Shown one piece after another: positions 49,684 to 54,165 of a stretch of 64,000 nt of DNA (position 1 is the stretch's first letter; each line of letters opens with the position of its first letter). The notes under the pieces are model-generated. The model saw nothing but the letters and a program-made list of their open reading frames with translations. It was not told the DNA's origin and made no database searches. The translations under genes and the position numbers were made by a program. Origin of the DNA: an uncultured delta proteobacterium (GTDB lineage Bacteria > Myxococcota_A > Polyangia > Haliangiales > Haliangiaceae); NCBI GenBank assembly GCA_963772655.1, contig CAVYYE010000009.1, positions 22,343 to 86,342 on the forward strand, written 5' to 3'.

Positions 49684-52452
49684 CTAGTCGATCTTCACCC
49701 GCACGGGCGCCGTCCACGCCTTGTCCTCGGCGGTGTAGTACAGGTACGCCGAGCTCGCGGGAGCCTCGTACGCACCCGGCACCGCCGCGAGCAGCTGGAT
49801 GTCGACGTCGCGCTTGGCGTTCGGCGGCAGCGCGCGCCAGTACACGATCACCTCGCGCGGCCGGGTCTCGTAGAAGTCGATCTTGCCCTTGTCGCGCAGC
49901 TCCTTGAGCTGCCAGGTCTGGAACACCGTGCCGCCGGGGATCCCGATCCGGGCGATCGTCATCGGCAGACCACCGGCGGTCTTGTTCTCGACGTGCGCGC
50001 GCAAGGTCAGGCCCTCGCCCATCTTGGTGCGCGTCTTCGCGAGCTTCGTCGCGATCTCGACCTTGGCATCCGGCGAGCTCTGCGGCCGCGCCGACCGGTA
50101 CTCGACGCCGATCGTGAACGGCAGCGAGGCATCGGCCTCGGAGTCGAGCGACAGCTCGATCGTGTTCTTGCCGGCCTTGAGCGTCCTCGCGAAATCGTCC
50201 CACACCAGTGCGGCCTTCTGCCCCTTGGCGAACTCGATCGTCTTCACGGTGTTGCCGTTGACGAGCAGCGTGACCTTGCCGCTGCCGGCCATCTTGCGCG
50301 CGGACTCGCTGTACGCGGTCAGCGCCTTGAGCCCGAGCACCGTGGCCTGCGTGTTGCCCCACTGGCCGTAGCCACCGCGGTGCGCGTTCAAGTACTCGAC
50401 CGCCTTGCGCACCTCACCCGCCTGATCGCCGGACTCGATCAGGGCGAGGGCAGCGAGCGCGGTGGTCTCGATCGTCAGCGAGTCGCCGCCCGACATCGTG
50501 ATCGACTGTGCCGCGCCGGGGAACGACCCGTCGGCCTTCTGCATGCCGACCAACCGGCGCACCATCGTCTGGCTCTCCTTCGATTTCGGAGCGACCGCGA
50601 GGAACGTGTTGGCCGCGAGGCCGAGCAGATACGGATCCTTGGTCGAGAGACCGAGCTTTCTCTGGACCGCGAGCTCGCGATCGAGGTCACCCGTGCGATG
50701 GGCCTCCGCGAGCGCCCACACGATGTACGCGTTGGTCGTGGTCTCGTTCGCGCGTCCGAACGAATCGAGCGCGGTCGACGAGCGAGCGAACCCACCCTTG
50801 CCGTCGCGCCGCCCCATCAGCCACTTCGCGGTGCGCTCGACCATGGCGTGATCGACGTCGTAGACCTTTGCCATGTCGGCGAACTCCATCAGGCCGTAGG
50901 CGGTGAGCGCCTCGTGGCCCGGCGTCTTGCCGAACCACTCGTAGCCCTTCTGCGGCGTCTCGTAGCCGGTCAGCAGCTTGTAGCCGCGGGCGAGCTTGCC
51001 CTGCGTCTGATCGACCAGCTGCGCGTCGACGTTGGCATCGGCCGACTGCAGGTAGGCCAGGATCATCACGTTGGGGTAGTTGGTCGACGACGTCTGCTCG
51101 AAGCAGCCGCCGGGCTCGCGGATCATGCCGGCCATGCCCTGCGTCATCGACGCGACCGGCGACGGGTACACCGTGATCGTCGGTCGGATCGAGTGCGCGA
51201 GCGCACCGGACAGATCGATCGTGCGCCGCATGGTCTGACCGCGGGCGAGTGTCCCCGACGACGAGACCTCGAACGGGAACCCCTTCGGCACCACGCGGAT
51301 CGTCTTCTCGACCTTGTCCTCGAGGCCGAGGGCATCGACCGCGAGCGAGACCTCGGCCGTCCCCGACGGCGCGACCCTCAGCGGAAACACCAGCGTGCGC
51401 TTGCCGCCGGCCGCCACGGTGATCGGGCCGTGGATCGGATTGGAGATCGGCGACAGCGCCGATCCGAACGTGGCAGCGAGCGTGGCATCGATCGCCGATT
51501 CCGTCGTGTTCTCGATCGTGACCGGTAACCGGACCACGTCCCCGGCGGTGACCTCGACCGGGAGGTGAGCGTCGAGCGACACCGGCAGCTTCGATCGGAT
51601 CGCGAGCTGCCCGGTGCCGGGCGTGCCGCCCTTGGAGAATCCCTCCGCGGTGACCCGGAATGCCGTCACGGCATCACTGGTCGGGAACTCGACCTCGGCG
51701 CGCCCCGAGGCATCGGTGCGCACGCTCGGGTTCCAGTAGATGGTCTCGCGGAAGTCGGTGCGAGGCCCCGCGTAGTGACGCGGGTACTTCGGCACCGGGA
51801 ACACGCGGACCGGCGCGTAGCCGTTGCCGGCGATCGCGATCTCGTTGTTCCCGATGTCCTCGGCGTCGTCACCGGCGGCGAGCTGCTGGCGCTCGAGCTT
51901 GCGCTTGGGAAGCCCATCGAGCTGGACGACCCGCATCACCTTGGGTGGTGGCGGTGGTGGCCGCAGCGCACCTCCCTTGATCGCGGGCGCCGGCATCGGC
52001 TTCTTCATCAATCGCCGCGGGGCGTGATGGCGCGGCATCGCCGCGGCGGGCGCCTCCGCCATGTCGACCGCGGGCTCGGTTTCCGGGACCGGCATCGGCG
52101 GTACCAGCGACACCAGCACGGTGGCGATCGATCCGCCGGCGACCGCGACCTGCATCGACACGCTCAGGTTGTTGCCGCCGGTGGCGACCAGCGTGCACGT
52201 ACCCGCGGGCAGCCCGGAGATCGAGAAGTGCCCCGCGCCGTCGGGAGCGGTCGAACGATGCGTCGATCCGCAGGTGACGGAGATCCGCACGCCCCCGGAC
52301 ATCACCTTGCCGGCGGCATCGACCACCGAACCCTCGATCGTGCCCGCGGTGTCCGCGCGCGCGACGGTGGGTGACGATAGCGACACCATCGCTCCCGCGG
52401 CACACGCGGTCGCGGCGGCGAACATCCACTTGGCGATCGTCGACCGGTTCAT
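49684..52452 (-). CDS. Alpha-2-macroglobulin-like thioester-containing protein: C-terminal half (CarboxypepD-reg-like domain, MG domains, TED with CxEQ, receptor-binding domain), with its own signal peptide
   Basis: Signal 'MNRSTIAKWMFAAATACAAGAMVSLSSPTVARA'; thioester motif 'GGCFEQT'; alpha/alpha-toroid TED block 'YGQWGNTQATVLGLKAL'. ATG at 52450-52452 overlaps the upstream stop (ATGA). Confidence 0.7.
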   Translation of the reverse strand: MNRSTIAKWMFAAATACAAGAMVSLSSPTVARADTAGTIEGSVVDAAGKVMSGGVRISVTCGSTHRSTAPDGAGHFSISGLPAGTCTLVATGGNNLSVSMQVAVAGGSIATVLVSLVPPMPVPETEPAVDMAEAPAAAMPRHHAPRRLMKKPMPAPAIKGGALRPPPPPPKVMRVVQLDGLPKRKLERQQLAAGDDAEDIGNNEIAIAGNGYAPVRVFPVPKYPRHYAGPRTDFRETIYWNPSVRTDASGRAEVEFPTSDAVTAFRVTAEGFSKGGTPGTGQLAIRSKLPVSLDAHLPVEVTAGDVVRLPVTIENTTESAIDATLAATFGSALSPISNPIHGPITVAAGGKRTLVFPLRVAPSGTAEVSLAVDALGLEDKVEKTIRVVPKGFPFEVSSSGTLARGQTMRRTIDLSGALAHSIRPTITVYPSPVASMTQGMAGMIREPGGCFEQTSSTNYPNVMILAYLQSADANVDAQLVDQTQGKLARGYKLLTGYETPQKGYEWFGKTPGHEALTAYGLMEFADMAKVYDVDHAMVERTAKWLMGRRDGKGGFARSSTALDSFGRANETTTNAYIVWALAEAHRTGDLDRELAVQRKLGLSTKDPYLLGLAANTFLAVAPKSKESQTMVRRLVGMQKADGSFPGAAQSITMSGGDSLTIETTALAALALIESGDQAGEVRKAVEYLNAHRGGYGQWGNTQATVLGLKALTAYSESARKMAGSGKVTLLVNGNTVKTIEFAKGQKAALVWDDFARTLKAGKNTIELSLDSEADASLPFTIGVEYRSARPQSSPDAKVEIATKLAKTRTKMGEGLTLRAHVENKTAGGLPMTIARIGIPGGTVFQTWQLKELRDKGKIDFYETRPREVIVYWRALPPNAKRDVDIQLLAAVPGAYEAPASSAYLYYTAEDKAWTAPVRVKID

Positions 52453-54165
52453 TTCACACCTCCCGCGGCGAGCACGGGCCGCCATTCGAATCGGCGATAC
52501 CCCCGGGTCGCGAGCAGCGCATCCATCGCGCGCGCCGCGTCGGGCGTATGGCCGAAGTAGTACGTGGGTTCCTCGATCGGATCCTCGGCGGACGCGCCGA
52601 GCTCGGGCTCGAGGTACAGCTTGCTCAGCAGGTTGCCCTGACTTGTCGTCGGCGAATGCCAGCACGGTCTCGTCGACCACGGCCAGCCCGACGTCGGCGG
52701 CGACCGGCCGACCGGCGGCGTCGGTGGTCCGGATCGCCAGCTTCACCGGGTCGCGCGGCGAGTACGACTTCTTGTCGGCCGTGATCGAGATCTTCAGGTC
52801 GGCGCCGAGCGCGTGATAGGTCAGGCGCTCCGCGAGCGGGGTGTGGCGCTGGTCGAACAGCGTCACCCGCACGACGCCCTGGCGTGCCGGGTCGACGGGT
52901 AGCTCGACCAGCGTCGGCTCGCCGGCGACGACATCGAACGATCCGCTGGCGAGCTGCTTCTCGCGCAACACCGCGACCAGCGACAGCCGCCGCGACGTGT
53001 TGCAGATCGCGCCGACGCGCAGGGTCTTGGCCGAGGTCTGATCGACACTCCGCACCACGCAGCCACCCGGTTTGCTCGCCGGCACATCGAACGTCTTGGC
53101 GATGCCCGCCGGCTTCGTGATCCGCACCGAGTAGGTGCGGTCGGTCGCCGGCACCAGCTCGAACCGGCCCATGCCGTCGTGGATCGACGACAGCCGCGTG
53201 ACGGTGCGCCCGCGGTCGTCGACCACCTCGCCCTCGATGTCGGCCGGCTTGCCGAGCGGCGTCTTCGCCGTGAAGTAGACGCGCCCCGGCACGCCATCGA
53301 TCAGGTCGCCGCTCTCGGGGTAGAGGGCGACGTCGACCTTGTGCAGGACGATCGGGATTCGCTTCTGGATCGACTCGGTGACGCCGCCGTCGTCGACCAG
53401 GATCGTGAGCAGGCCGTCACCGCGCGCGATGCTCGCCGGCAGCGAGAACCGCGCGGTCGCCTTGCCGCCATCGTCCGTGGTCAGCTTCAGGCGCGGCAGC
53501 TCGACGTCGTCGATCGACACCACGCCGACCAGCTCGTGATCGGCCAGCGGCTCGCCGGTGGCGCGCTTGATCTCGATCGCGGCGGTCACCCGGTCGCCCT
53601 CTCCATACGCCTTGCGCAACAGCTCGACGGACTTCTGCAGTCGCGGCGCCTCGTAGGTGTTGATCACGATGGTCTTGACGTCGCGGGTCCCGTCGTCGGC
53701 GGCCATCGTCAGCTTGTATTCGCCGCCCTCGATCTCCGGCGCGAGCGCGAAGTCGTTGCGCGCCACCCCACCCTGCGCGAGCACGCGCTTCTGCGCGACG
53801 ATCGCGCCGCGCGGCGAGGTCAGGGTCATCGTCACGCCGATCGGTGCGCCGCCGACCAGCGTGCCGGTCGCGCGCAGGTCGGCCCGGAACCACATCGTCT
53901 CGCCGGGCTGGTACAGCGGCTTGTCGGTCATCACGTACGCGCGTTTGGTACCCGCGTGCTCGTAGTAGCTGGTGATCGCCTGATCGATCGCCGCCGGTCC
54001 GGCCGACACCTCTGCGGGGGTCAGCTCGGAGATCGTGCGGTCGGTCGATGTCGTGGCGATCGAGATCGGCCGGGTGTGCGTCGCCGGCGGTGAAGACTGC
54101 GGCACGGTGCCGCCTCCACACGCCGCGAGCAGCACCAGCCATGCCTGTCTGGTCGTTGCCCTCAT
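52449..54165 (-). CDS. Alpha-2-macroglobulin N-terminal MG-domain lipoprotein (bait/MG half). Single-nt frameshift near 52633-52648 before its last ~65 codons.
   Basis: Lipobox 'WLVLLAACGGG'; MG-domain-like beta repeats. Alternate frame gives a protein-like C-terminus 'SQGNLLSKLYLEPELGASAEDPIEEPTYYFGH...AGGVK*' ending at a TGA that overlaps the next ATG. The annotated frame gives an Arg-rich junk linker. Confidence 0.55.

Follow-up and report, generated by a model that had tools for sequence, protein, structure and literature searches.

One open reading frame, two coupled genes: a eukaryote-like bacterial macroglobulin with a probable C3-like two-chain layout

Whether one long open reading frame (ORF) is one gene is the question raised by a locus of an uncultured delta proteobacterium (Myxococcota_A, Haliangiales; assembly GCA_963772655.1, contig CAVYYE010000009.1), of which a stretch of 64,000 nucleotides, hereafter the window, was analysed. 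The ORF, which lies at 54165..49684 on the minus strand, starts with ATG, is open from end to end and reads as 1493 amino acids, and its translation contains an internal signal peptide, MNRSTIAKW...ARA, as noticed in a preliminary description of the locus. The ORF is two genes merged by a one-nucleotide insertion and is hence, as a single frame, an artefact of one extra base. The upstream gene, A, encodes a lipoprotein half, and the downstream gene, B, encodes a thioester half of a protein that resembles the alpha-2-macroglobulins (A2Ms) and thioester-containing proteins (TEPs). Taken as a whole, the account given here, of two coupled genes for one A2M/TEP-type protein, with a conserved split, a product that would be a heterodimeric trap and a frameshift private to this sequence, is considered likely.

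In the original frame, the ORF opens with a lipoprotein-like N-terminus, MRATTRQAWLVLLAAC, followed by macroglobulin (MG) domain sequence as far as ...LAFADDKSG (codon 510, nt 52636). After codon 510 come 61 Arg-rich, junk-like residues and then MNRSTIAKW...ARA, the ATG of which lies at 52452..52450; past the Arg-rich stretch, the frame reads MNRSTIAKWMFAAATACAAGAMVSLSSPTVARA and continues as a long, clearly protein-like sequence. The +1 frame, read from nt 52634, gives NLLSKLYLEPELG...RGYRRFEWRPVLAAGGVK* (in full, NLLSKLYLEPELGASAEDPIEEPTYYFGHTPDAARAMDALLATRGYRRFEWRPVLAAGGVK) and ends in a TGA at 52451..52449, which overlaps the ATG of gene B as ATGA. The preliminary description had already set this clean C-terminus against the Arg-rich linker, and the orthologues bear it out. 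In tblastn searches, the 61 codons of the +1 frame align to the C-termini of the orthologous upstream proteins (E = 5e-23 and 1.5e-21, 68-70% identity) without gaps or stops. The GC content at third codon positions (GC3), which is an independent marker, is switched in phase in 52450-52630 and back to normal on both flanks, which means that the +1 frame is the coding one there. Together, the tblastn and GC3 signals are far beyond chance.

The responsible base can be seen in a direct comparison of the DNA. On the minus strand the window reads AAG TCA GG[G] C AAC CTG against AAG AGC GGC AAC CTG in the orthologue L003, and the change from GGC to GGGC, by one extra G at about 52635..52638, is placed by the DNA of the three syntenic orthologues L001-L003, by the switch of the tblastn alignments at 52633-52637 and by the GC3 phase. 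A single-nucleotide indel had been suspected within 52633-52648, where it is indeed found; it had also been described as sitting at the junction of the two genes, and this has to be amended, as its position is 183 nt upstream of the junction. The extra base is absent from all orthologues examined, and the window copy has been deposited as one fusion protein of 1473 aa (P0001, a gene-finder call).

Once the extra base is removed, gene A (54165..52449, minus strand, like all features of the locus below) encodes 571 aa and aligns end to end and without gaps to orthologues of 567-587 aa. Codons 1-510 (52636..54165), delimited by translation, Pfam and an AlphaFold model, belong to the original frame, and the last 61 codons with the TGA (52449..52634) belong to the +1 frame and encode a conserved helical tail. 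Gene B (49684..52452, 922 aa and a stop), defined by its translation and by stand-alone homologues, is preceded by a Shine-Dalgarno-like GGGAGG at 52459..52464, which lies 6 nt before its ATG, within the last codons of gene A. The single 1493-aa ORF arises because the stop of A and the start of B overlap one base out of frame; in this DNA of 70% GC, which contains no intervening stop, a +1 insertion anywhere in the tail of A would bring the frame of A into that of B. A scan of 49300-54500 found no promoter-like sites, and no terminator-like sites on the coding (minus) strand, which says little in either direction.

The split into two genes is of old date and conserved within one clade, and it is to be kept apart from the private frameshift. 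On the contigs L001-L003, which share with the window the gene order pdxA-A-B-crp, the two genes are called separately, with products of 572/573 aa (carrying MG2 and A2M_BRD) and 927/940 aa and an overlap of 4 nt. A genome scan, which covered one genome per species, returned 79 loci, and 21 of these, classed as split by a script, all come from metagenome-assembled genomes (MAGs) of Kofleriaceae, Haliangiales or 'Myxococcales'. In 21/21 the stop and the start overlap as ATGA, GTGA or TGATG after a purine-rich, Shine-Dalgarno-like stretch, and the downstream frame begins like a signal peptide, with basic residues, then hydrophobic ones, then an AxA-like site. The reading of the locus as two genes, proposed from the window alone, is thus upheld by the syntenic orthologues and by the species-level loci, which are split at the same place. 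Orthologues continuous through the region had been brought up as a sign of a simple sequencing error; the orthologues are split instead, and the single-chain forms without an internal signal peptide that do occur in the same family are paralogues of a sister clade.

The homologues of each half tell the same story. Those of B fall into more than 100 stand-alone clusters of 900-1000 aa, with 55-70% identity and the same domains, and the only close long match to the B query is the mis-called fusion P0001 of the window itself. With the corrected A as a query, 120 clusters were listed, at 60-72% identity and nearly all of 555-590 aa. Gene B runs off the contig in 3/21 split loci, and its ORF is intact (907-990 aa) in 14 of the 15 split loci the flanks of which were examined, the contig of the remaining one ending before the end of B; the CarboxypepD_reg domain described below is detected in every split locus whose contig covers the region of B. 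Wherever the contig extends past A, B lies directly downstream. The pair is found in several unrelated genomic contexts, the pdxA/crp synteny being limited to the closest subclade, and tblastx of the 4-kb flanks across the 15 loci found no third conserved gene, for which reason A and B are regarded as a self-contained functional unit. Gene finders merge or mislabel these genes, the halves being given the labels 'MG2 domain-containing protein' and 'carboxypeptidase regulatory-like domain-containing protein'.

Gene A would supply the lipid-anchored, N-terminal half. Its lipobox, LAAC (54129..54118), marks a lipoprotein signal predicted from the sequence, and the Cys is conserved in at least 90% of 38 orthologues; together with the Pfam matches to MG2 (1e-16) and A2M_BRD (1.6e-7), this agrees with the lipobox and MG domains that had been read from the sequence. 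The structures of both proteins were modelled with AlphaFold as single chains, on alignments of 38 sequences for A and 41 for B. In the model of A (predicted local distance difference test, pLDDT, 78; predicted template modelling score, pTM, 0.68), a disordered lipoprotein tether is followed by four full MG sandwiches (residues 75-168, 176-272, 278-360 and 369-451), and of a further MG domain no more than two strands are present (458-481), with helices (499-554) after them. The residues of the motif ...DALLATRGYRRFEW... in the helical tail are invariant in the 38 orthologues, and the tail is read as the counterpart of the LNK region of complement C3. The invariant Cys residues of A are 369 and 388.

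Gene B carries the thioester half. It begins with a predicted signal peptide, MNRSTIAKW...PTVARA (residues 1-33, 52354..52452), recognised by sequence features only, which is followed by a CarboxypepD_reg beta-sandwich (residues 37-116, 52105..52344) supported by Pfam (PF13620, residues 38-116, 33.9 bits against a cut-off of 32.3) and by the model, in which it is confident (pLDDT 90-95). This domain occupies the site of the anaphylatoxin domain in the C3 alpha chain. The next segment, a disordered linker rich in Ala, Pro, Arg, Lys and Met (residues 117-212, 51817..52104), is a candidate bait region and has the hallmarks of one, as it is predicted to be disordered (pLDDT <50 over residues 124-242), varies between 77 and 166 aa in 41 orthologues and is little conserved, with a majority fraction of 0.37 as against 0.82-0.86 in the flanking domains. 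A half domain resembling MG6-alpha then follows (residues 213-290, VRVFPVP...RTDFRETIYWN, 51583..51816), which was identified by alignment and by its invariant residues. Its alignment partners are the beginning of the C3b alpha' chain and, from residue 703 onwards, A2M. Few parts of B are as well conserved (majority fraction 0.82); modelled alone, residues 243-290 of this half domain are poorly folded (pLDDT about 52-57).

In the model of B (overall pLDDT 74), MG7 lies between this half domain and the thioester domain (TED; residues 432-718, 50299..51159), a helical toroid that is matched by TED_complement at 9.6e-28. The motif GCFEQ (residues 449-453, 51108..51094) is present, each of its residues, G449-C450-F451-E452-Q453, being invariant in 41 sequences, and the thioester bond itself is predicted from it. 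The TED is flanked by beta segments at 395-428 and 725-785, to which no CUB profile matched, and a beta-sandwich at 798-921 (49690..50061) ends the chain; the latter, similar to MG8 and receptor-binding domains, is confident in the model and borderline in Pfam (A2M_recep at 21.0 bits, the cut-off being 21.7), with a weak match to bMG10. On the model, the order of the C-terminal core would be MG7, CUB with the inserted GCFEQ thioester domain, and MG8. Pfam also gives a match to A2M (2.3e-10), so the set of downstream domains named in the preliminary description (CarboxypepD-reg, MG, GCFEQ, toroid TED and receptor-binding) is recovered, the last of them only at the borderline. The invariant Cys residues of B are 61 and 86 in CarboxypepD_reg and the thioester Cys450. 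An NCBIfam scan gave only irrelevant sub-threshold matches, and the PADLOC defence models matched neither B nor the A orthologue P0121.

Comparison with solved structures suggests where, in a macroglobulin, the split has been made. In Foldseek searches of the PDB, the model of A comes closest to C3, C5 and C4 beta chains (best match 6rur_A; E 1.7e-20, TM 0.53, 527 columns), and that of B to A2Ms of eukaryotes and to C3 and C5 alpha chains. Profile-sequence searches identify the first MG domain of A as eukaryotic MG2 and match the core of B to human A2M (5e-29), TEP1 (1e-28), CD109 (7e-28), A2ML1 (4e-26) and C3 (1e-24), with E-values of 3e-9 and 7e-8 for the bacterial A2Ms of E. coli (YfhM/ECAM) and Salmonella (SaA2M). 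The partner of B residue 234 is residue 16 in the C3b alpha' chain, residue 92 in the intact C3 alpha chain and about residue 703-729 in human A2M. By sequence alignment on the side of B and by fold matches on both sides, the split is thus placed at the boundary of the beta and alpha chains of C3/C4/C5, which is the start of the A2M bait region. From the alignment of residue 234 it also follows that the signal peptide, CarboxypepD_reg and linker of B sit where C3 has its anaphylatoxin and alpha'NT and where A2M has its bait, and the partial MG domain and helical tail in the model of A would correspond to MG6-beta and LNK of C3.

The relatives of the pair show what an undivided form looks like. 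Ten other Kofleriaceae loci, such as P0117, encode a single chain of about 1400 aa, in which both the internal signal peptide and CarboxypepD_reg are missing, and A and B are collinear with P0117 (A 15-562 with 17-570 at 60% identity; B 210-922 with 699-1412 at 68%). Single-chain paralogues of the P0117, P0241, P0242 and P0274 types, from Kofleriaceae and from bacteria more widely, share with A and B this collinearity, an identity of 60-68% (P0117) down to 36-53%, and GCFEQ; unlike A and B, they are one polypeptide without an internal stop, ribosome-binding site or signal peptide, and the nearest single-chain sister clade, unlike B, lacks the CarboxypepD_reg domain. In one Kofleriaceae MAG (DATBBB01), a fused locus (L018) occurs alongside a split one (L023), for which reason the two forms are considered paralogues. 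In a neighbour-joining tree of the A part, which is without support values, the split loci form one clade, sister to the single-chain clade of Kofleriaceae. More distant relatives in the genome scan are all single-chain, and their hosts are other Myxococcota, Burkholderiales including Undibacterium pigrum DSM 19792, Gemmataceae, Armatimonadota, Blastocatellia and Anaerolineae. An exhaustive profile search of 1.84 billion cluster representatives returned 11,247 relatives (E up to 0.001), among which the split form makes up one 50%-identity cluster (P0076); the best 150 cluster representatives are mostly 1350-1950 aa long, with their C-terminal part aligning with B 210-921.

Among the single-chain relatives, the site of the bait and the anaphylatoxin has received different inserts: P0241 has a peptidoglycan-binding OmpA domain there (620-714), and P0274 and P0319 have CarboxypepD_reg. 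P0319 has in addition an N-terminal zf-HC2 domain of the anti-sigma type. The A-like part of P0274 extends to residue 540, and its B-like part, which contains CarboxypepD_reg, begins at 546. Since different domains have been inserted there, the bait site is an insertion hot spot; what was added there in the split clade is a stop together with a ribosome-binding site and a signal peptide. Two candidates for further splits were considered and rejected. In the case of P0245 (L083 2992..7364), there is an overlap of 97 nt between an upstream MG2 gene of 701 aa and a TED gene of 787 aa, and the downstream N-terminus is linker-like and without a signal peptide, so that the arrangement is probably a frameshift or a gene-calling artefact; P0253 is a gene cut by the end of its contig.

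How the two halves might work together can be outlined from these comparisons. Both would be exported by Sec, A as a lipoprotein and B by way of its cleavable signal, and they would associate in the periplasm, or at the membrane that anchors A, by completing a shared MG domain. In C3, MG6 is built from both chains. Here, the domain would need the two strands of A as well as B 213-290, since A ends with two strands and the segment of B is conserved and yet folds poorly alone. An attacking protease would then cut the exposed linker of B, which would detach CarboxypepD_reg, similar to the release of C3a from C3, or at least free the N-terminus of MG6-alpha. This cut may set off a rearrangement of the A2M type, in which the GCFEQ thioester would become exposed and link covalently to the protease. 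The pair would thus act as a membrane-tethered heterodimeric protease trap, which could shield the cell envelope from the proteases of the cell itself or of competitors. At the position of the catalytic His of C3, which is Asn in A2M, our own reading of one loop alignment suggests an invariant Asp, D563, and an Asp there would weakly favour A2M-like over C3-like thioester chemistry.

Several observations weigh against this account. The binding of A to B is inferred from single-chain models, and B 243-290 might owe its low confidence to a shallow alignment, of 41 sequences, and not to the absence of a partner. No conserved inter-chain Cys pair is apparent in the 38 A and 41 B sequences, unlike in C3. 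Protease inhibition is extrapolated from distant A2Ms, with 16-19% identity in structure-based alignments, and the neighbour-joining tree on which the sister-group relationship is based carries no bootstrap values. A protein of 831 aa with GCFEQ, P0248 (L084 2564..5059), consists of the C-terminal half only and has its own lipobox-like N-terminus; there is no gene for an MG half upstream of it, and its neighbours lie on the opposite strand. Because such a protein exists, a B-type half can persist without an adjacent A.

The alternative that survives best concerns the window copy. The preliminary description had offered either a two-gene arrangement or a recent pseudogenisation; the former holds, as a conserved feature of the clade, and the latter would at most apply to gene A of this sequence and may itself be an assembly error. 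In this second reading, the frameshift is real, A has just become a pseudogene, and the two-chain protein is being lost or B works alone. The insertion is present in the deposited sequence, where it is called as the 1473-aa fusion P0001; B-only relatives exist (P0248); and many such genomes also carry a single-chain paralogue that could compensate. If real, it would deprive A of its conserved 61-residue tail, and B could still start from its own ribosome-binding site. Such a mutation would have to be extremely recent, as the 61 codons are undecayed (68-70% identity, no stops or gaps), and nearly all of the 120 listed clusters of A homologues are intact. A second one-nucleotide insertion of the same type (ACA G GTC, about 48374-48379) was found 4.3 kb away in a ClpB-like AAA+ gene (46470..48753, plus strand), which is otherwise 75-80% identical to its orthologues; it splits the gene into frames 3 and 1, and the orthologues are continuous (...GFGAANTADHASAIRKFFR). 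Since two insertions of the same type lie in conserved genes a few kb apart, a local assembly error is favoured, and one error is simpler than two inactivations. A GC3 frame-plot of all 64 kb shows only these two frameshifts, at about 52636 and about 48376, and no further one in the other ~47 kb; the assembly is not generally error-ridden, which speaks for a real mutation, and the judgement between error and mutation is circumstantial. On balance, the insertion in A is probably an error of assembly or sequencing; a very recent real mutation is a serious, if less than even, possibility, and the loss of the two-chain protein that could go with it is somewhat doubtful. The frameshift carries little biological weight unless the reads confirm it and is probably trivial.

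A further alternative to one protein made from two genes is that A and B might be adjacent and separate proteins, with A, for example, on the surface as a lipoprotein of MG domains and B free in the periplasm as a thioester protein. Their export signals do differ, with a lipobox on A and a Sec signal on B, the models are of single chains, conserved inter-chain cysteines are lacking, and the B-only relative P0248 exists. The break, however, falls inside one MG domain, with two strands on A and the rest on B, and the tail of A and the half domain of B are among the most conserved segments. The two proteins together are also collinear with single-chain relatives, B is always directly 3' of A where the contig continues, and the overlap is kept in 21/21 loci and in unrelated contexts. 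Independence of the two products is thus judged improbable.

That the 1493-aa ORF is a true single-chain A2M, with an Arg-rich linker and an internal hydrophobic segment, is scarcely credible: the ORF is open throughout and was called as such by a gene finder, and single-chain paralogues exist in the family (P0117), but the 61-residue linker is without homologues, while it is the overlapping +1 frame that is conserved and that GC3 marks as coding, the syntenic orthologues are split, and the genuine single chains lack the signal peptide and CarboxypepD_reg and keep the RGYRRFEW tail that is lost here. Programmed +1 ribosomal frameshifting at AAG UCA GGG C AAC, which would restore A and set the ratio of A to B, deserves just as little credence, since, although the needed frame is +1 and the downstream sequence is intact, the extra base is absent from all orthologues examined, the site contains no stop or rare 'hungry' codon and, by the rules of prfB-type sites, no +1 slippery motif known to us, and a second, unrelated gene nearby has the same kind of insertion.

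The surroundings of the locus complete the picture of the window. Upstream of gene A lies pdxA (54212..55186, minus strand), 80-81% identical in tblastn to the PdxA of L001 and L003, which is context only and outside the A-B system. An Arg-rich ORF of 434 aa (54162..55466, minus strand), the TGA of which overlaps the ATG of gene A, was rejected as a shadow ORF over the real pdxA. On the other side, a crp-like gene (48842..49531) adjoins three tandem ClpB-like paralogues with AAA_2/ClpB_D2-small domains and 34-37% mutual identity (39658..42003, 43102..46473 and 46470..48753, plus strand), the last two of which are kept beside the A2M pair in the closest relatives. ClpX and Crp are 94-96% identical to those of Kofleriaceae-type MAG contigs, which is part of the basis for placing the window at family level. 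Elsewhere in the window, an ORF of 702 aa (11761..13869, plus strand) joins ArgJ (9-395) and an amino-acid kinase (436-679), apparently as fused enzymes of arginine biosynthesis, and a 1298-aa Ser/Thr kinase with AAA_16 and TPR (6135..10031, plus strand) is a STAND-like signalling protein typical of myxobacteria. An ORF of 1141 aa (32338..35760, minus strand) matches an MFS transporter in its first 400 residues only, and its GC3 phase is ambiguous at about 33280-33580, so that a fusion, a low-complexity region or compensating frameshifts are possible.

By its domains and its thioester motif, the A-B protein is assigned to the A2M/TEP superfamily. It has the array of MG domains (four folds in A, MG7 and MG8 in B), the CxEQ-bearing TED and the variable segment; it differs in that a single polypeptide is replaced by two genes with overlapping stop and start and separate export signals (21 loci). 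In the literature searched, bacterial A2Ms are of two kinds: Type I, which has a thioester and pbpC as its partner, and Type II, or MagD, without a thioester and part of an operon of six genes, and both are single polypeptides (PMC5764988, PMC4498604). The Type I family, represented by ECAM/YfhM and SaA2M, has an N-terminal lipoprotein signal and a CxEQ motif (PMC5764988, PMC4498604) and resembles the A-B protein as an envelope thioester macroglobulin. ECAM and SaA2M, however, are single chains of about 1650 aa with 13 domains, encoded beside pbpC, whereas A and B have 571 and 922 aa and are shorter in total. A PBP1C-type partner had been reported as absent from the window, and this proved correct: no PBP1c-like gene, that is, no transglycosylase/transpeptidase domain, was found among the ten window ORFs of at least 580 aa scanned outside the syntenic block, or among the called neighbours in L001-L003. 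Type II A2Ms (MagD/YfaS) are similar in being multi-MG envelope proteins that work with co-encoded partners (PMC5764988), and some sources label homologues of B 'YfaS'; they have no thioester and a six-gene mag operon, whereas the thioester motif is invariant here and the sole conserved partner of each half is the other. In the full-text literature searched, which did not extend to the original bacterial-A2M survey of 2004, there is no description of a split bacterial A2M.

The eukaryotic single-chain proteins A2M, A2ML1, TEP1 and CD109 are the best profile matches to the core of B among solved structures. They share with the pair the MG2 match to A, the G-C-x-E-Q thioester and a hypervariable exposed stretch between the halves of MG6; unlike the pair, they are single polypeptides, with the bait within one chain, no lipid anchor and no insertion of CarboxypepD_reg. 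Complement C3, C4 and C5 consist of two chains, as the A-B protein would, with A similar to the beta chains (MG domains, MG6-beta, LNK) and B to the alpha chains. In C3, as in B, a small globular domain and then a flexible stretch head the alpha or alpha-like chain, the order CUB-TED-MG8, as modelled, would be the same, and one MG domain appears to be shared between the chains, here as judged from single-chain models. The complement chains arise by furin cleavage of one precursor, whereas A and B are two genes with separate export signals. An anaphylatoxin helix bundle heads the C3 alpha chain and a CarboxypepD_reg beta-sandwich heads B, in which Pfam finds no ANATO; the C345C/NTR domain of complement is not found in B by Pfam either, MG1 is missing from A, the inter-chain disulfide of C3 has no apparent conserved counterpart, and the structure-based sequence identity of A and B to complement is only about 15-17%. 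It is conceivable, as a tentative and rather unlikely extension, that this myxobacterial clade independently reached a C3-like design in two chains, with a lipid-anchored 'beta' and a secreted 'alpha', assembly after export and activation by removal of CarboxypepD_reg, which would make it a C3-like tagging or trapping device beyond a split inhibitor.

The A-B protein lacks the defining features of both bacterial A2M types and of complement proper. It represents a third kind of bacterial macroglobulin, by its sequence nearer to the A2M, TEP and C3 of animals than to ECAM, and within this kind one whole clade builds the protein from two coupled genes, divided where the chains of C3/C4/C5 are cut. 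If the halves assemble after export, they would be a natural experiment in which the macroglobulin fold tolerates, and may benefit from, the separation of its chains at this site, and they would be a bacterial model, open to experiment, in which the control of thioester exposure by the shared MG domain and by the bait or activation segment could be studied. Set beside the known systems, the pair is best described as a two-gene, C3-like two-chain form of a eukaryote-like bacterial macroglobulin, the function of which we infer from its relatives.

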